Assembly (NCBI GenBank): GCA_964658305.1
Contig: OZ210885.1
Span: 21,638,001-21,702,000, forward strand
DNA: 64,000 nt
Direction: 5' to 3'
Source: Leptogorgia sarmentosa
Taxonomy: Eukaryota
Each line of letters opens with the position of its first letter. The stretch's first letter is position 1. This document shows positions 1,953-53,200 of this stretch, piece by piece. Under the pieces are notes generated by a model. The model was not told the origin of the DNA and did not search any database. It worked only from the letters and a program-made list of their open reading frames with translations. A program made the position numbers and the translations under genes.

Positions 1953-4900
1953 ATGTCTGCCGAAGATAACTGCATTCGCTGCAAGGAGCCTGTAAGAGCT
2001 CGGCAACAGGGGCTGTTATGCGATTGCTGCAAAAGATGGCAACATCGGACCTGTAACAGTGGGATCTCGCTAATCGCGTATCGAACCGCTGTAAGATGCG
2101 GTGAAGAAATTGACTGGCGTTGCATAGACTGCCTTAATTTGAGTGCGGGATTCTTGTTGCCTGCCGCGGAGAGCACGAGACTGGTTGAAGATTGTGAGTA
2201 TTCTAATTCATATAGCTATACAGAAATAGTTGAAACAGCTTTCAATAAACACCCAGATGAGATCAAAACTGTTAATAACTTGATTACTTGCAGCCGGACA
2301 AGAAGTAGATGAAGATGAAGTAGATGAAGATTTGGTGATGATGTTGGTCGGCATGGCAGCCAGCAATTCCGAAACTGACGCACCTGGAGAAATGGACTGC
2401 GGCCCTCAAGGTATCAATTGCATTCACCAATCTTTTTTTCATTATTTCCCTTATATGATTATATGAAGTTATGTTAGTGCATGATAAGTTATGAGTATAT
2501 GAAGTTATGTTAGTGCATGATAAGTTATGTGAGTATATGGACCTTATATGAGTATATGAAGTTATGTTAGTGCATGATAAGTTACGTGAGTATATGGACC
2601 TTATATGAGTACGGTATATGAAGTTATGTTAGTGCATGATAAGTTATATGAGTATATGAAGTTATGTTAGTGCATGATAAGTTACGTGAGTATATGGACT
2701 TATATGAGTATATGAAGTTATGTTAGTGCATGATAAGTTATATGAGTATATGAAGTTATGTTAGTGCATGATAAGTTACGTGAGTATATGAAGTTATGTT
2801 AGTGCATGATAAGTTATATGAGTATATGAAGTTATGTTAGTGCATGATAAGTTATATGAGTATATGAAGTTATGTTAGTGCATGATAAGTTATATGAGTA
2901 TATGAAGTATATGAAGTTATGTTAGTGCATGATAAGTTACGTGAGTATATGGACCTTATATGAGTATATGAAGTTATGTTAGTGCATGATTAAGTTATAT
3001 GAGTATATGAAGTTATGTTAGTGCATGATAAGTTATGTGAGTATATGGACCTTATATGAGTATATGAAGTTATGTTAGTGCATGATAAGTTACGTGAGTA
3101 TATGGACCTTATATGAGTATATGAAGTTATGTTAGTGCATGATAAGTTACGTGAGTATATGAAGTTACGTTAGTGCATGATAAGTTACGTGATTATATGA
3201 AGTTATGTTAGTGCATGATAAGTTACGTGAGTATATGAAGTTATGTTAGTGCATGATAAGTTATGTGGGTATATGGACCTTATATGAGTATATGAAGTTA
3301 TGTTAGTGCATGATAAGTTATGTGAGTATATGGACCTTATATGAGTATATGAAGTTATGTTAGTGCATGATAAGTTACGTGAGTATATGAAGTTATGTTA
3401 GTGCATGATAAGTTACGTGATTATATGAAGTTATGTTAGTGCATGATAAGTTACGTGAGTATATGAAGTTATGTTAGTGCATGATAAGTTACATGAGTAT
3501 ATGGACTTATATGAGTATATGAAGTTATGTTAGTGCATGATAAGTTATATGAGTATATGAAGTTATGTTAGTATTTTTATATTGTACTTTGTACCTTATT
3601 GCACTTTTAGTTTCAACAAATGTGACTTTATTTTCATGTAAAAATACGAAGTTGATTTTGGCCAGGTATTCTATAATTTAATACTCCCAATAACATATGA
3701 TAGTAGGTAATGATGATGGAAGCATGCAGGACCTATTGCCAGAACTTGAAAGGATCCAGGGCGGAGTTAATGATAGTGAAGGCTCATACAGTGGGCGAGA
3801 GGATCTACGTTCTGATGGAGAAGCATCGATTGAAGAACCTGGCATCATGGACTGTACTGCGGATGAGAGTCAACCAACGATTAGTTTTTAGATTATCGAA
3901 GATTCATCAAAAAGGGGGAAAAGCAAGCTGACTGATAGCAGAGGCTACACGTACAATGTCAAAAGAAAACGTGTCAATGCTACAGACTGGCAATGTACTG
4001 TCAGACCTAAGGTAAATACAATTCAATTTCTTAAACAAAAAAACCTACATGGGGAAATGTATGGCATACTACATAAAGTTCCTGAGCGTTACATCCTACT
4101 GATCCTTATTTGCATTTTTCCTATCCTGTAGATTAACCCATGTAGAGCAATAGTGATTCGAAGGGAACTTTGATATTCGCACAGAGCATAACCATCCAGG
4201 GGATGTGGATGCAAGCAATGCTATAAAGATAATATCAAAAATTAAACAGGAAGCAATTGTCAACCAAGTGCTACTAAATGAAATGCCAGACGGTCCATGC
4301 CTAACCCTGCCTAACCCAGAAAATCTTGCTCGTGCAGCCAACTACCTAAGGAAAGAGCTGTGACCCACAGATCCAACCGACCTCTCCTTTGATTTGGAAC
4401 AAGAACATGTCCCAGATGGTTTCCTTCGCAAGGACATCAAGGTTAGTTCTCTTAATTACCTTTTCACTTTTTGAAAATTTAACAGGTGGAACATGTGTTT
4501 AAATGGACCACCTGCTACCTAGTACTATTCATTTTCCCCCTTTATTAAACATTTTTTCTATTTGCGTTAGGTACGTGATCGACGTCATCTCTTATTTGCC
4601 ACTGATGAGCAACTTGATGTCCTAAGTCGTGCCAAAAGTTGGTATGTGGATGGCACCTTCAAGCTCTGTCGCCATCCCTTCAGCCAGCTGCTCACCGTAA
4701 ATGCTTTCGTGAGGGCAGACGACCATGCAAAACAGGTCCCTTTGGCATTTGTGTTGATGTCGGGAAGAAAGAAGAAAGACTACAAGGCTATTTTTCAAGC
4801 AATACTGGAAGTCTTGCCGATCAGCCCATTAGTGAAAAGGATAACCCTTGACTTTGAAGTATATAGTTTCAGTATTTGTTATTTTGGGCAAGGTTCTAGG

Positions 4901-39279: not shown

Positions 39280-39775
39280 TCAGTAAAGTTTATTGCAAAT
39301 TGTTCATGCTTTCTTAAATGTAGTTTCATAGATCTAAAACAAAATTCACATGTATTAAAGTCAGGACTGTATGGGGCTGAAACACAAGATCTACACCATT
39401 ATCTCCCAATATTGTTCGCAGTTCATTGTCGGCAAATGCGCCAATGATAAAATCCACAGTTGTCCATAACAATAATATCTCCATTTGACAGTAGGGCATA
39501 TTGCCATAGACAGGATTAACCAAGTTCAAGCACTGTTCAAAAAAATTGAGCATTTCTAATCCAGTAGACGGACCATTTAGGATGTTGAACTGGTCAACTC
39601 CAAAGCGACTGATCCATTACAGGTTAACCATTGTAATTACAGTTGGAAGTGTAGGGCTGAACTTCAACAGCTGGTTCACCTTTCTTACTGTGCCCATACA
39701 CACGGTTTGGTGTTGTTTTAACGACGGATGCTTCGTCAAAACGGGAATGTGGTATTTAATATGCATGTGTTCAAG
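39280..39775 (-). pseudogene. IS630/Tc1-like DDE transposase fragment
   Basis: Across frameshifts: ILNGPSTGLEMLNFF, GDIIVMDNCGF, LRTILGDNGVDLVFQP, YSPDFNTCEFCF. Confidence 0.65.
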
Positions 39776-39829
39776 GTAATGTTAAAACACATTCCTTTTC
39801 TGGCCAACATGGCCGCAAGATTTTTTGTT

Positions 39830-41734
39830 TCCCCCTGGGAATCAGACCTTTTGCTTCGAGGCATACCTCAGCCTTTTCCTCCTCATCCTCAGATATCACT
39901 TTAAGAAGATTTTTAATACTGGGGTATCCCTTTCTTAATGCACGAACGGCATCTGCATGAGCCGACCATCTTGTGTCAGAGAGGCGCTTGACTGTTGGTG
40001 CTGCTGATTTTTCAAGGGCATCGCACAAAATCTTCCAGCGGTGCGTGGAGGCTGAGAAAAAGACATATATTTTCTGCACAGCACTAAAAAATAGAACAGC
40101 TTCTGTGCAGTAATCTAAAGCACATTTTCCAACCAAATTTAGGGAATGCGCACAACATGGAACATATTCTGCGAGATTATTCTTTTCTTTTATTAGGGCC
40201 TGCATCCTGTTATACTTCCCACTCATCTCAGAAGCATTATCGCAGGGCTGACCTCTACAGTCTGCAATGTCAATACCAGAATCGTCAAGAAAATCTAGCA
40301 AAACTTTTGCCAGTTCAGATCCAGTATGTCCACGAATCCGTAGAAAGCGCTCAATCGAATTGTCTTGTACGACATATCTTACGATTACTGTGAGTAGGTC
40401 AGTATATGCAACATCTGGGGTAGAATCCACAGAGACGGAGTAGTATTTAGCAGCTTTTACTTCTTCTACGATATGACGCCGTACTTCCTGCCCAAGTAGC
40501 TCGATGAATTTGTTGCAAATAGTTGACAATAAGTAGGACACGTGACCTCTTCCTTTATTTGCTCGTCGCTGGATGTGTTCCGCAAGAAAGTTATCATACT
40601 CAGCTAATAGCTCAAGAATTCCTAAGTAGTTGCCGTTGTGCACACTACCTATTATCTCATTACTGCCACGGAACGCAAGCCCTTGTGAAGCAAGGCATTT
40701 TATGATGCTAACAATGCGTTCAAGAAGCTGATACCAATACTTCATCTCCGATTTGTGCTGTTCTATCAGACTTTTATCAACGCATTGGCTATTTGTCCTC
40801 CGAACAACTAGTTGTGCGATGCAACGTTGATGCAATGAGCTGCTTTCATGAAGTCTTAAGTCTCTTGAAGCATGTTTCCAATCTGAGTAGCCACCAGATG
40901 CAAGAATTGACAGTTCTTTTGGTGGTGAGAATAGTTTACATATGATGCAATAAAGTTTACCTGTGGATGGTGAATAACAGAGCCAATCCTGTTTGACTTT
41001 TTCACATTACATTGATCGCGAAAGAACAGGCTTTTATTACAATGACGCCTAAATGTTTCACCTTGAAATATTATCCCTGAGGTACTGAGGTCATTATCAT
41101 GATGTTGACAATCGAATGCACCTTGCCTGCAAAAATACTCTTGCAAAAATACTCTGTTAGTGTTTTATTCTTTGTCAGTAAATTTTGAAATTTTCTTTCT
41201 TTCTCCTGTTTTGCTTTTATTTTTTGCCAGCCACTTTGGTTCTTGGACATAGCTAGTATTGATGAGGTGCCTGCCCTTAAAAAAGGGAAATTAAAGATTT
41301 TAGTTGCTGAACATGTCATAGAAATATGATCAAATTGTCAAATATCGAACAAATTACAAGTATAAACAGAAAACAACATCACAAACCTAGGTATGAATTA
41401 ATAAAGATAAAAAAACATTACAAATGACGAACTTGTAATAGGATATTATCACAAATTAATAATTATATATATTTATGAATCATGTACTTTGGTCAAATGC
41501 GCAAAATGGCTTTAATGCCAGGCGATGCTTTCGGTCAGGGATTCATTCGGAAAGTCGGTACTTCGTGTACCCAAATCTTTCCATCTAGTCTAGACTGAGT
41601 CTAGGTTTACATTTTGTTTACTTTAGTTAGGACTGGTTTGTTAGATCATTTTTTGTTCTGACAAGTGAAGGGCCTATTTATTGTTGGGGCCTGGAGCTGC
41701 AGTCCCATCCACCCCTAGTGTTAATCCGGCCCTG
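39830..41734 (-). mobile_element. Truncated hAT (ZMYM1-like transposase); only the 5' terminus is retained
   Basis: LAFRG..GNYLGILELL, VDSTPD, RGQPCDNAS, CCAHSLNL, DTRWSAH; minus-strand terminus CAGGGCCGGATTAAC at 41734. Confidence 0.88.
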
Positions 41735-44601: not shown

Positions 44602-45539
44602 CTATTAGGGCTAGCATTCTGAACATTGCTTGCATCATTGATGTGTGATCGCCATAAATGCCAAATTACCCAACCACAACGCAAAAATCATTAGCACAAT
44701 CTTGCATCCGTATGAAACGCTTTTGTAAAAACCTTTCGATTCTTGACGCACTTATTGGAGATGCGTGCCGCGTGCGCAATACAATATCTTGTTTACGTAC
44801 TTCAAGCTTAATTATTCAGACCGCTCCCCTCTTTTAACAAACGTCCCTGAAGCTTAATTATGCCCCCGGATACGACAAACATCTTTATGGACAGACAGAC
44901 AGACACAAGATCTCGATCTCGACAATACATAACTCGCGCGAAAGACTGGGTCGAGTAGACTCTGGGGAAACCACCGTGTGTCAAGAATAGTTTGCTGCCT
45001 CGCTACGCTCGCTCACCAACACAATTATCTACGGAGATAACAACCAGAAATGAAACACATGCATGACATGAAATCCATGCATGTCCATATTACAAACCAA
45101 ATAAAGAAATAAAAAATCCCACAAAACAAAGCTGGTATGTTCTTAGTGAAAAAGTATTCAAATTGAAATTTATTTCAACGATTTATAAATTGCAATTGAG
45201 AAGCATCGCAAAATGCAAAACCTGTCAACTGAGCAATACAAATTTGAAACCTGCCGACAGAGAAATACAATGAAATTTGAAACCTGTTGACCAATTAAAG
45301 TTGAACTGCATGTCGACCTCATGTTCTCATTTGATACCGATGATGTATTGTGGCAGTTGTTGAATAATACAGTGTTTTTTATGCAGGTATTCGGATCCTG
45401 GACTGTGGTTCAAATAGCTGTGTCCTCATTGAGGTTGTGGATTGATGGGTGACACCATGAAATGTGATGAGTGTGGTCGTGATGGAGTTTGATGGTGGAC
45501 GGGGTTGAATGTTATGGTAGGATGGAAGGTTGTAATAAA

Positions 45540-45760
45540 GTGAATTATATTAGAACGAATTACATTAAAAGGAATTATATTAAAACGAATTACATTAAAA
45601 GGAATTATATTAAAACGAATTACATTAAAAGGAATTATATTAAAACGAGTTGTGTTATGTGTATACTGGCAAAACCCGGGTTTATGGTGGTGTTTTGTGT
45701 GAATGCCAGGGCCATAGTGATTGCCATTTATCACCGGGCCATGTCCCTTGGTTTTCCGTT
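45540..45760 (-). repeat. 30-bp (2x15) tandem array beside a possible IS3EU-type terminus remnant
   Basis: (AAAACGAATTACATTAAAAGGAATTATATT)n; minus-strand ACGGAAAACCAAGGGACATGG. Confidence 0.45.
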
Positions 45761-48448: not shown

Positions 48449-49142
48449 AATTATTATATACACAAGCGCTGGATATGAGCTATTCTGCAATCTGATTGGC
48501 TCCCTACTAGCAGGATATTAGCTCATATCCTGCTACTAGAGAAAAACAAACAAAATGGCGGAAAGAGCGAAGCCGGAATTAAAGTTTTCAACAGTTAAAA
48601 ACGTCTTTGCGATCGATTAAAAGAATAAAATTCAAGAAGTTCAGTGAGTAAATGTTAATTGTGCAGTTTTGAATCTGGAAAACCGGACTCGACGCCATAA
48701 AATTCATCGCTTGATCGAGTTGGATCGCTTGTTGCTGTTTGTTGACATTTTACAACGGTAAAATTTGTGTTCTACTTTCAAATGCAGAAAAATACAGATG
48801 AAAACTGCTGAAATTTAAAACTAGCTATAGTTTAAACGTAACGTTGACTATTTTAATTCCGTAACTGTTGTTTTTACCGTGCTTTTTGGCGTGTATTTAT
48901 CAAGTAAAACTGTTTTTGTAAATATGTCGATTTCAAAGCGATAGAACACTTTGAAATTATATTCAGTTATTAATAAAATACAAATAAATTTGGAAGTTGT
49001 TTTTGTCAAGCGCTTGTGTACATAATAAAACAGTTATTCTGCTCACTCTCGTCGTATATGATTGATAGTCGACGAGGCGCATAGCGCCTCGTCGACTATC
49101 AGCGCATATACGACTCGACTTCACAGAATAACTGTTAATTAT
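48449..49142. mobile_element. Non-autonomous Crypton-like element inserted in the left Academ TIR
   Basis: Absent from the right TIR; AATTAT at both borders; left end is inverted to an internal site (~49008-49028); long terminal hairpin around GATAGTCGACGAGGCGC..GCGCCTCGTCGACTATC; family assignment is from recall. Confidence 0.55.
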
Positions 49143-49300
49143 ACGTCTGAGAACATTCGTTACTAATCTTGCCTGATGACGTCAGAGTGTTAGTCGAGAT
49201 TTAGATAACGGATTGCCATTGGTCACACTAAAATTGCATGTATTGTGCATTTTTATTGGTTCATTGCTCTTTAATCCTTTGTTGTGAATTATTAATCAAG

Positions 49301-49696
49301 ATGGCGAAAATTACATATGGAAATAATTTATGGGCACGTGCAATTGATAAGGTACTAAATGTATTTCAAGTACCTTCTTTGTATAAGGAACATTAACAGG
49401 CCCTTACTCAGTTATTTTTGAAGCGCGATGTTTTTGTTAATCTCCCAAAATCCTATGGAAAATCGCTTATATTTCAAGCTGCACCCGTGTTGGCCGACGT
49501 TGTGTTTCGAAGAAGCACTGGAACCAGTATAGTCGTGGTCATTTCTCCGCTGAAAACCCTTATGGAAGATCAAGTTAGACATTTAAACAAACTAGGCTTA
49601 TCGGCCGCTTGTGTATCAGATCAACACGACGATCGACTTGTTCAAGACATCATCAATGGACAATACACACACGTATATGGATCACCTGAGTGCTAA
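49301..49696 (+). pseudogene. N-terminal fragment of a RecQ-like helicase (AcademH)
   Basis: DVFVNLPKSYGKSLIFQ...VVVISPLKTLMEDQV...VYGSPE; upstream in-frame stop. Confidence 0.88.
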
Positions 49697-50004
49697 TTAT
49701 GTCAAATTATGCTGATATTTAATTTATGCTTTTAAAGTTATTGTGGCTACCGTAACTTCCGGTGACAATTTCCGGTCACGTGATAGCCGAACACGAGGGA
49801 ATATAATAGAAAATATACACATTTTTTTTTTTTTGCGATAAAAACGGACGCCATATAGTTCATATTGTTAGTGCATGAAGAACCAAACGGTTCTTAACGT
49901 AAATTAAAGTAATAAAGCAAATGAAACCCGGTTGTTGTTGTTGTGTGCGTGGAATTCGGCGAAATTCGGTAAAGACAAGTTTACGTGGCGTCAAGATAGC
50001 AACA

Positions 50005-50022
50005 GTTAAGAACCGTTTGGTT
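50005..50022 (+). promoter_or_regulatory. PBS-position 18-mer complementary to the element's own LTR (candidate self-primer binding site)
   Basis: GTTAAGAACCGTTTGGTT is the reverse complement of AACCAAACGGTTCTTAAC at 49881-49898 and 56234-56251. Confidence 0.75.
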
Positions 50023-50282
50023 TCTGCGTGTAATAGTCGTGTTGACGACAGCTGATCTTCAGGAAGGAGATTATTACTGGTATTGTGTTATTGACAGATT
50101 TGGAAGAAGAAAGTTGATATCTGCATTAGAAGACGTTATTGACCTGGAATATTGATTATTATGGTGGAGTAATTCGGGTTTACGTAGTTGGTCTTCAAGG
50201 GAAGCCATTCATCAAGTTGGATAATTATACTTGTATTGTGGGGTACTTACGAGTTAGTTTAAAGAAGGAACAGTGAGTTAGA

Positions 50283-53200
50283 ATGAGTCGTCAGAGTCAA
50301 CAAGAAAATATGGCACAATTGGGCAACGTAAACATTATATTTAAGTCGAGGTTGGAATATATTAACAATCTTTTGACATTACAAGAAGACATTCAGGAAC
50401 TAATGGGTGCAGGGCCTGGCAATGTTGACCAGGTCATGTTGAAGAAAGATGCTTATGATAAATTATGGTGTGAATTTGTAACTGTTCATGAAGAATATTT
50501 GGAAATTGTTGCAGCTGAGGATGAAAAAAGAAGAGCTATTTTAACATATAGAGGACAGATGGCAAAAAAGGTGCACTTGGACGGTGTAGTAACATCTTGG
50601 TGTAGAAAGTCGAAGTTGGACAGGCGTGGTAAGGCCCGAAGCCTGATCAGTAGTTTAACAAGTGGCACAAGTTCAGGATCGGCCTTGTCAAAGAAGAGGG
50701 AAAGGATGGCTCTCACACAGTTAAAGGTAAATCAATTAATGCAACAACATGAAATGAAAAGGAAGATGGAAGAGTTGAGATATCAAGAAGAACTGATGGA
50801 GGCTCGAATGGAAGCAGAACAAGCAAAGATTAGCTTAAGTATTTACAACGAGCTAGCTGATGAACAAATTAAAGAGTATGTTAATGATGTAACAAGTGTT
50901 AATGGTGATGAGGTACAGGACCAGGGGGAACCTGGTTTGAGCCCTCTGACTGAGAACGATGCTTATGGATTAGATAGTGAGTTTGATACTGGACACCCCC
51001 CTGACCTTCCCTCAATTCAAGAGTTGTCGGGAAACCCACAACATTTTGGACATGGAGAACAGAAACCGATAGTATTGGAAGCCAGAAGAATAGATTGGGA
51101 CTATGCAACACTTACAATGATGAATCACCCAGTTGTGAACTACGCTGTCTTAAATCATGCAGTAATAGAGAACACCAGGCATTCTAGTGCTCTCATACCT
51201 CAAGCAAGTAAGTCGTTTACTTACGCTGGAAATTATAGACCACAGCTAACCCCCAGATCACCCTTGGAGCGACCAGTATATATGGGGACTGACAGAAACT
51301 GTGGTATGCTAGATGCACGTTACCCAGTGGCAAGAACACAAGAAGACCCAGCAATTAAGTTACCATGGCAACCACCTGAAGAATTTGAGGCACGAATGAA
51401 CCCCAGGAGGGACAATGGGGAGGAAATGGTTAGGGCATTGCGGCAAGTTGTGTCAACTCCAAGAATTAAATACATGAGTTTCGACGGCGACCCCATGAAC
51501 TATGTATCATTTATTCACAACTTCGAAACTTGCCTTGAGAAAGATAATCCTGATAATGCAACGAGATTGCAATTACTAATTCAACATTGCAATGGGAAAG
51601 CGCGAGAAGCAATAGAGTCATGTGTGAACCTTCCTGCCGAACAAGGTTATGTCACAGCTAAGAGTACCTTAAAGGAGAACTTTGGGAAACCCCATATAAT
51701 TGCCAAAGCACATGTTAAGAAATTGGAAAATCTGCCAGCCCTAAAACAAGCTGACGGACCAAGTTTATTGGAGTTTGCAAGGAATCTAGAGGTCGCGAAC
51801 AGAACCCTGACCAGCATGGGACCGGAGTATGAAAGCGAATTGAGTCATGTGAATACTTTACGTGAGTTAAATAGGAAACTTCCATTGTTCATGAGAGTGA
51901 AGTGGACTGAGCGTGCGGGAACAATAATTGAATCAGGTTCCAGACCAAATTTCGAGGACTTTTTAAAGTTCGTGAAAGGAAGAGCTAGACTTGTAAATAA
52001 CGAATTTGCTGAAGATCTTTCTAGTAGTGCGTCGAAATTGAAAGGAAGGGGACAAGGAACAAGTGGGCGCTTCGTGCAGAAATCGTCTACGTTAACCGCA
52101 GGTGTAAAACAAGCTCAAGACGTGAATCGTGAGTCGAATCCAGCTCGGCAAAAATGTTCGTTCTGCTCTGGGGTGCACAGGATTTGGAAGTGCCTGGCAT
52201 ATAAAAAACTATCTTATGAAGACAGGAAGAAATTTGTCCAAGAGAAAAGTTTATGTTTGAAATGCCTTAGCAGAGGACATTTTTTGAGAACATGCCCCAA
52301 GGCACACTTTAGATGTCAACAAGAAGGCTGCAATAAAGAGCATCATACCTTGTTGCACCCTCCAGGAACTACGTCTCAGAGAGATCGCGAAACTCAGCAG
52401 GAGCATGGTAGAAACGAAACGAGAGTTGACGACGACAAGAATCAACAATCAGAGTCTAAGATAACTGCGTCAACAGGGGCCGGCGAGAGAGTGCCTCAGC
52501 GTTGTACCCGTAAGGGTGGAAATCAAGGGAGGAGAGCATCACCAAGTGGTAACGTACGCGCTCCTGGACTGTGGATCGGAAGTAACTCTCATGCATCGGA
52601 AATTGCAAAGGGAACTCGGAGCTCATGGGCGAAAGATCGAATTCACACTTTCGGGAATAAATGGGTCTAGACAAATTGATAGCGAACTCTTGGATATTGT
52701 AGTCACGTCTATGGGCGGAGAAACATCATTGGAATTATCAAACGTGCGGGCAGTTGAGAATGTGCCCATAGCTGGAAGTTGCATTGCCTGAAAAGAGGAT
52801 ATCGAGAGCTGGCCTCACTTGAATGGAGTTCCGATTACCGAACTAGACGTAAACGAAGTAACATTGATCATTGGCTTACAGGAGCGACCCAGCATATTCT
52901 TGCCGCTCGAACATCGCATTGGGAGAGAGAATGAGCCGGTGGCGATAAGATATAGCCTTGGTTGGACAGTCGTTGGCCCTATTGGCAAGGGTCGGGAGGA
53001 CAATTGCTATGCTATGAATCTCACTCAGACAGTTGGCAATATAAAGAAACCCATCACTTGTGTAGATCATCGAATCAATCGGAGGAGATTGAAAGAACCG
53101 GCGGAAGGCTATACAGAAGAAGATTTTCGATTTGAGAACAGTGGCTCGGATGAAGGCGAACTGACGTCGAAGTTAAATGTACCGGTCGACGAATTGGAGT

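Follow-up and report, generated by a model that had tools for sequence, protein, structure and literature searches.

A BEL/Pao retrotransposon of Leptogorgia sarmentosa whose primer-binding site matches its own LTR, with probable priming by its own RNA

Introduction

Self-priming of reverse transcription has been shown for Tf1. According to the accessible portions of the reports, the transcript's first 11 bases pair with the primer-binding site (PBS); the cut by RNase H falls between bases 11 and 12 (PMC7175516, PMC10085805, PMC4600332). The same mode has been proposed, again in the portions available, for Tf1/sushi, Tj1, Tcn1 and copia TAR (PMC4600332, PMC6317226, PMC7175516, PMC10085805). 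The initial annotation of the DNA studied here named Tf1/Tf2 as the established case; the proposed range is wider than it allowed, and includes Tf1/sushi, Tcn1 and the plant copia elements TAR, Houba and Osr-1 in the accessible text of PMC6317226. The same text presents self-priming as having probably arisen more than once.

BEL/Pao elements are classified by the ICTV as Belpaoviridae, with LTRs of 0.2-1.2 kb, a gag-pol order of PR, RT, RH and IN, and a polypurine tract (PPT) (PMC8742986). The ICTV profile describes them as primed by tRNA-Arg or tRNA-Gly and their replication as poorly understood (PMC8742986). A published case of BEL/Pao self-priming was not found in the open-licence literature; a remark in GyDB, Repbase or supplements is possible. 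The words "PBS" and "tRNA" are absent from the main text of a BEL/Pao survey (PMC3118150) and of the Sinbad paper (PMC554778). The accessible portions of PMC3601003, PMC10886601, PMC8220671, PMC7472051, PMC4558846 and PMC6934838 likewise contain no BEL/Pao self-priming.

Herein, a BEL/Pao element is described from a 64,000-nucleotide stretch of Leptogorgia sarmentosa DNA, referred to as the window. The element is young and defective, and its PBS matches a segment of its own LTR, the arm. With a probability of roughly 0.7, its family primes with its own RNA in a Tf1-like manner, and not with a tRNA.

Results

Structure and age of the element

The element extends from 49742 to 56357. Its parts are as follows.

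49742..50004, + strand: 5' LTR, TGT...ACA, 263 bp, from the LTR comparison and the target site duplication (TSD)
56097..56357, + strand: 3' LTR, 261 bp, which holds the arm again at 56234-56251
49737..49741, + strand: left TSD, GTTAT, from the TSD pair and the empty-site joint
56358..56362, + strand: right TSD, GTTAT
50277..52670, + strand: Gag reading frame with DUF1759 and Cys-His boxes
52486..55974, + strand: pol, with protease region, RT (YVDD), RNase H and integrase zinc finger
56085..56096, + strand: polypurine tract TTTAGGGGCCGG, common to the relatives

Paired TG...CA LTRs are flanked by a short TSD, and Pao-type Gag, RT, RNase H and integrase domains follow one another in this order, as expected of BEL/Pao. 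The Pfam domains are DUF1759, RVT_1, Peptidase_A17 (E 5.6e-46) and Integrase_H2C2; these are BEL/Pao domains and not the Ty3/gypsy chromovirus proteins that define Tf1/sushi. The 22 best protein matches have identities of 55-89%; those with a name are from Acropora, Nematostella, Actinostola and Patella, which by itself makes a marine invertebrate host probable and a cnidarian likely. Pol contains the RNase H motifs FSDAS, RLEL, WTDS and NPADD. The copy in the window is defective: Gag and pol are out of frame near the Gag-protease border, where the relatives have a single ORF, pol carries in-frame stops, and the C-terminal part of the integrase (about 250 aa) is absent.

The two LTRs are identical at 260 of 261 aligned bases, with one 2-nt gap. 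A contig of the empty site has a joint that skips 6621 nt, which equals the element plus one TSD (3/3 runs of one sample), and this fixes the element ends independently of the LTR comparison. The LTR repeat appears to reach 50008 because the TSD and the PBS both start with GTTA; the left TSD and the contig joint place the true end of the 5' LTR at 50004. That the TSD and the PBS both have GTTA looks like a mix of target preference and chance, since the 5' flank of a putative second family copy ends, in contigs, with GTGAT and not with the GTTAT of the window. Near-identical LTRs and an empty allele make the element a recent insertion, and its cis signals were therefore likely functional until recently.

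Contig joints at 52780-54870 and 55919-56084 (runs X1-X3) suggest that this second copy lacks 2089 nt internally and differs from the window element in its 3' part and its 5' flank. The retrotransposon sits within a 41-bp perfect inverted repeat pair (49137-49177 and 56372-56412) and adjoins a DEAD-box helicase fragment (49397-49693; PF00270, E 1.9e-9), and contig depth is greater over the flanks than over the element. The repeat pair and the helicase fragment probably belong to a small multicopy DNA element, the landing site of the retrotransposon. Elsewhere in the window, a fragment at positions 2-320 (36-47% identity) looks like the integrase end of a further BEL/Pao element, and a 411-aa frame with DUF4371 lies at 39771-41006 on the minus strand, presumably a piece of a hAT-type transposase. 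Tandem arrays occur near the window start (2450-3574), at 45506-45666 (15-bp unit) and at 57631-58455 (190-bp unit), together with a 219-nt inverted repeat (62442-63192) and a glutamine-type triplet run (63617-63759).

The PBS matches the LTR at its very end

50005..50022, + strand: PBS, zero spacer, starting with GTT and not TGG; imperfect pairing continues to 50032
49872..49898, + strand: predicted self-primer arm, ending ...AAC; the perfect 18-nt part is 49881-49898

The PBS GTTAAGAACCGTTTGGTT (50005-50022) is the exact reverse complement of LTR positions 49881-49898, just as claimed in the initial annotation for the 18-mer that directly follows the 5' LTR. Pairing begins at the first base after the LTR, and base 50004 adds no pair. 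The further claim that the 3' C of the arm faces this first base also holds, the end of the LTR being fixed by the TSD and the empty-site contig. The configuration is that of Tf1-like elements, in which the PBS is complementary to the element's own 5' LTR and flush with the LTR end.

Once G-U pairs and small loops are allowed, the predicted stem between arm and PBS reaches 49872 and 50032 (-36.6 kcal/mol), and the arm alone folds as a hairpin (-9.6 kcal/mol). The 18 pairs have a mean probability of 0.95-0.97 for all seven assumed start sites. For the PBS, predicted pairing is at -35.2 with its own arm, compared with -18.1 or weaker for six other candidate stretches. In dinucleotide shuffles of the LTR, a match longer than 10 nt was obtained in 0 of 20,000 and one of 10 nt in 1. 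The fold of the whole region is unexceptional (z -2.2, with 8 of 200 shuffles equally stable), and local inverted repeats of at least 18 nt occur at 8 sites in the window (38 of 63,677 positions). The unusual feature is the register at the first base after the LTR, not the length of the inverted repeat. Variants in the arm or the PBS within the family were not seen among contigs at 80% likeness.

According to the ICTV description, the PBS of BEL/Pao elements should complement the 3' end of tRNA-Arg or tRNA-Gly; the site found here starts with GTT and has no spacer. Because the proteins place the element in BEL/Pao, this non-tRNA PBS is read as a departure within that group.

Promoter, poly(A) signal and predicted RNA fold

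49757..49782, + strand: two TTCCGG motifs and CACGTG, likely U3 promoter elements
49802..49807, + strand: TATAAT
49837..49873, + strand: alternative core promoter guess, GATAAAA at 49837 and Inr-like TTAGTG at 49868
49911..49916, + strand: poly(A) signal AATAAA, lying downstream of the arm and largely unpaired in the fold of 5' LTR plus leader
49929..49953, + strand: GU-rich tract; in the predicted fold it forms, with the U5 end (49995-50004), a stem that stacks on the PBS stem

The TATA-like box near 49802 and the AATAAA at 49911, both named in the initial annotation, exist. A TATA-like word is present in only 2 of 9 LTRs compared, and CACGTG in 7 of 9. We take CACGTG to be an E-box and the TTCCGG motifs to be ETS-like. 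The usual spacing rule for GATAAAA and TTAGTG, as we assume it, puts a candidate start near 49870. As a guess, transcription may begin there, two bases before the extended stem, in which case the stem would form the 5' end of the RNA, as in Tf1, and would not be internal to R, a possibility raised in the initial annotation. In the predicted fold, both flanks of the PBS compete for the same GU tract.

Relatives of the element

A metagenome scan gave 49 loci, 11 of which have the same PPT followed by the TGT start of an LTR; the PPT pattern of the clade was TTTAGGGGC[CT]GG. An LTR-PBS junction together with the arm was found in only 5 of the 49, all of one family (L005, L006, L008, L010 and L011, hereafter L005-type). 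Both arm and PBS are thus available for two families only, that of the window and the L005-type. Five families (L003, L004, L007, L018 and L025/26) provide the LTR side only. L002 provides the PBS side only; the middle of its LTR is absent from the contig, and its LTR end (...AATA) was placed by homology. Between the window and L002, the closest locus, ungapped comparison shows 21 of 26 bases kept in the PBS, as against 11 of 30 within U5 and 17 of 54 farther along.

Protein scans of the viral collection found no relative. From the same collection, 49 matches to the PPT motif were dropped, as they did not continue as the LTR start of the clade. The genome collection gave one locus, a distant TGG-type element. 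No tRNA genes were found in 28 loci. L001 (9074-15053) is a BEL/Pao element that has two LTRs and a PBS of the TGG type and lies within the record of a Wolbachia genome; this is host DNA, through transfer or assembly error.

A tree of single-frame Pol hits was calculated with FastTree from the elements of this study. The window groups with L002 and P0001 (support 1.0). A second group without the LTR intron described below consists of L003, L004 and L007 (0.997), and two intron-bearing groups are formed by the L005-type and the L018/L025-type. Support along the backbone (0.19-0.85) is too weak to order gain and loss of the intron.

A predicted LTR intron and compensatory changes

In the L005 family, the LTR end ...CGTAACA is followed by GTTTTCGACTACTTCGTC, and the PBS is GTTTTCGACT, which also starts with GTT. 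The best match of this PBS in the unspliced LTR is 6 nt. A PBS foldback was absent both from a plain inverted-repeat search of 26 loci, at a threshold of 14 nt, and from a duplex scan of the L005 family in unspliced form. This lack of a match looked like a refutation of self-priming. Removal of a predicted GT-AG intron, 71 nt of GTAAGG...TGTAG, however, gave a perfect match of 10 nt that is anchored where the LTR ends. Among 280 introns tried, this single one gave a match of at least 7 nt. By chance, 10 nt was reached in 4 of 2000 shuffles with any GT donor and in 1 of 2000 with GTRAG. A scan of 1447 sites found five other contiguous matches of 10-16 nt, at places not identified as LTR ends.

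After the predicted splicing, 15 of 17 pairs are kept at PBS positions 1-17 of L005, with pairs 11 and 12 broken. Between the window and L005, six positions of the PBS (4, 5, 6, 7, 10 and 15) have changed on both sides of the stem. These compensatory changes join two families and need the predicted splice. The initial annotation had proposed self-priming in BEL/Pao and asked for covariation between families, and its proposal thus gains support, short of proof. The primer pairs of L005 have probabilities of 0.35-0.86 in the predicted spliced fold and 0 in the unspliced one. The family specificity of the predicted pairing is not complete, as the L005 PBS pairs with the spliced arm of L018 at -21.0 (9 nt) and with its own at -18.4 (10 nt).

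Nine LTRs aligned on the 3' end of the arm share the motif AAC-(A/G/T)GT-N4-5-AAC at LTR nt 105-162, the arm and intron patterns having been written after inspection of the sequences. By these patterns, an arm homologous to that of the window stands at the corresponding place in the LTRs of the relatives. It is uninterrupted in the window, L003, L004 and L007. In L005, L010, L018, L025 and L026, it is split 5 nt from its 3' end by a predicted intron of 67-71 nt with donor GTAAG and acceptor YAG, followed by AAAAC. The splice sites lie in the sense orientation, which suggests that the arm region is transcribed.

The arm of the 3' LTR of L010 differs from that of its 5' LTR at two bases, and the 10-nt junction match is lost. 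In the 3' LTRs of L003 and L007, the last bases of the arm overlap an 8-bp inverted repeat, AAACGTGC / GCACGTTT. From this repeat and the folding of the window arm on itself, one may speculate that, in families lacking the intron, hairpins conceal the arm copy of the 3' LTR.

Discussion

Proposed priming mechanism

The best reading of the window family is that of an intron-free form of a marine BEL/Pao clade that self-primes in the manner of Tf1. We infer a start site, a cut and a priming step that would proceed as follows. Transcription would start upstream of the arm within the 5' LTR, perhaps near 49870, and the arm would then make up the first 30 nt or so. The arm would fold onto the PBS, with the U5 stem stacked on the duplex. 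A cut after ...AAC (49898), made by the RNase H of the element by analogy with Tf1, would free a 3' OH. Reverse transcriptase would then start at the LTR end and proceed through U5 and what is left of R as far as the cut. Strand transfer to the 3' LTR would use the segment between 49899 and a poly(A) site just past the AATAAA at 49911, a repeat of some 30 nt. The layout fits this model, since the poly(A) signal lies downstream of the cut.

In the sister families, the primer would need splicing, and only a spliced 5' copy could prime. The sequence upstream of the cut would be copied from the 3' LTR RNA in these families, and the intron would therefore survive only if the 3' copy stays unspliced. 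A single splicing of the 3' LTR copy followed by reverse transcription would give an intron-free LTR like that of the window. The switch of intron state may have occurred more than once, because intron-free LTRs are found in two separate lineages of the tree. The broader proposition is that the whole clade is tRNA-independent and primed by its own RNA, with two interchangeable states at one homologous site, a splice-built primer and an absent intron. We regard it as an even bet.

Alternative explanations

The stem between arm and PBS could instead be a structural switch acting in dimerisation, packaging or translation control, with another primer or site used for priming. The arm and the PBS each form a small hairpin, so a kissing-loop contact is conceivable, and the second arm copy in the 3' LTR could pair over a long range. 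The compensated pairing, moreover, speaks for selection on the stem and not for priming as such. However, in both families with data the stem begins at the first base after the LTR, with ...AAC of the arm facing GTT. In LTR elements, this is the place where minus-strand synthesis must begin, according to the accessible portion of PMC10886601. A TGG-type PBS after the LTR is not present. We consider a purely structural role unlikely.

A host RNA might bind the PBS, for example a tRNA half cut in the anticodon loop, with the LTR match being secondary. Priming from the anticodon loop is described for copia and the fungal element Helenus in the available parts of PMC10886601 and PMC6317226. The complement of the PBS resembles an anticodon arm (AACGG-UUCUUAA-C), and the window and L002 share conserved PBS bases. 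A tRNA-like sequence was not found by ARAGORN in the whole window or by Rfam at E<=10 in 49600-50400. The implied anticodons also differ between the families, being CUU in the window, CUA in L002 and GAA in L005; CUA is presumably a stop reader, and we take the L005 reading to have C in place of the usual U33. A host primer would leave the parallel changes of LTR arm and PBS unexplained, and this explanation is judged highly unlikely.

Priming by the element's own RNA could also use a 3' end produced by the first splicing step at the donor-like GTAAAT (49899), instead of one cut by RNase H. The arm of the window ends exactly at AAC followed by GTAAAT, and GT follows the arm in 4/4 intron-free LTRs, where the search pattern required it. 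The other intron-free LTRs, though, read GTGCCT, GTGCCT and GTCACG, which are poor donors, and C follows the arm in the five intron-bearing LTRs. The chance of this route is very slim.

The initial annotation offered as its own alternative that the stem masks the poly(A) signal of the 5' LTR and so allows read-through transcription; the loop that the stem closes does contain AATAAA, and the downstream GU tract is predicted to be paired, but this idea is hardly credible, as AAUAAA is more open with the leader (unpaired probability 0.78-0.93) than in the LTR alone (0.37-0.73), and the register at the LTR end and the missing tRNA PBS are left unexplained.

Significance

If self-priming by the element's own RNA is true, BEL/Pao would be the third LTR superfamily to reach it, contrary to the standard description of BEL/Pao as tRNA-primed. 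Annotation based on the PBS would miss or mislabel such elements. They would no longer depend on the tRNA supply and, applying an idea from the accessible part of PMC7472051, might escape silencing by tRNA fragments that act at the PBS. The window would also be a natural control for the splice-junction form, with the same arm at the same LTR position and no intron. A control of this kind would link the plain form and the splice-dependent one through a single mechanism, and splice-dependent priming would become testable by comparison of families.

Comparison with known systems

Within Belpaoviridae as described by the ICTV, the window element is alike in its LTRs, gag-pol and PPT, and L001 shows the TGG-type PBS. 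In half-tRNA priming, as in the copia elements Osser, Bryco and Bianca and the fungal Helenus, the PBS lacks a TGG start, as in the window. Unlike those, the PBS of the window matches its own LTR, and the anticodons implied vary between families and include a stop reader. The plant elements Tcn1 (gypsy) and TAR, Houba and Osr-1 (copia) are likewise cases of self-priming predicted from sequence, as far as the accessible text of PMC6317226 goes, in other superfamilies and hosts.

The closest likeness is to the Ty3/gypsy chromoviruses Tf1, Tf2 and Tj1 and the Tf1/sushi group, whose PBS, in the portions of the reports available, is complementary to their own 5' LTR RNA, as in the window. The predicted U5-side duplex next to the PBS is like one side duplex of the Tf1 "pretzel" as given in the accessible part of PMC10085805. 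The third "pretzel" duplex is not clearly present in the window, where the PBS flanks compete for one GU tract. The pairing in the window is 18 nt when perfect and about 26 with G-U pairs, as against the 11 reported for Tf1 in the text available. The window differs from Tf1 further in its BEL/Pao proteins and in the arm of the sister families being split by a predicted intron.
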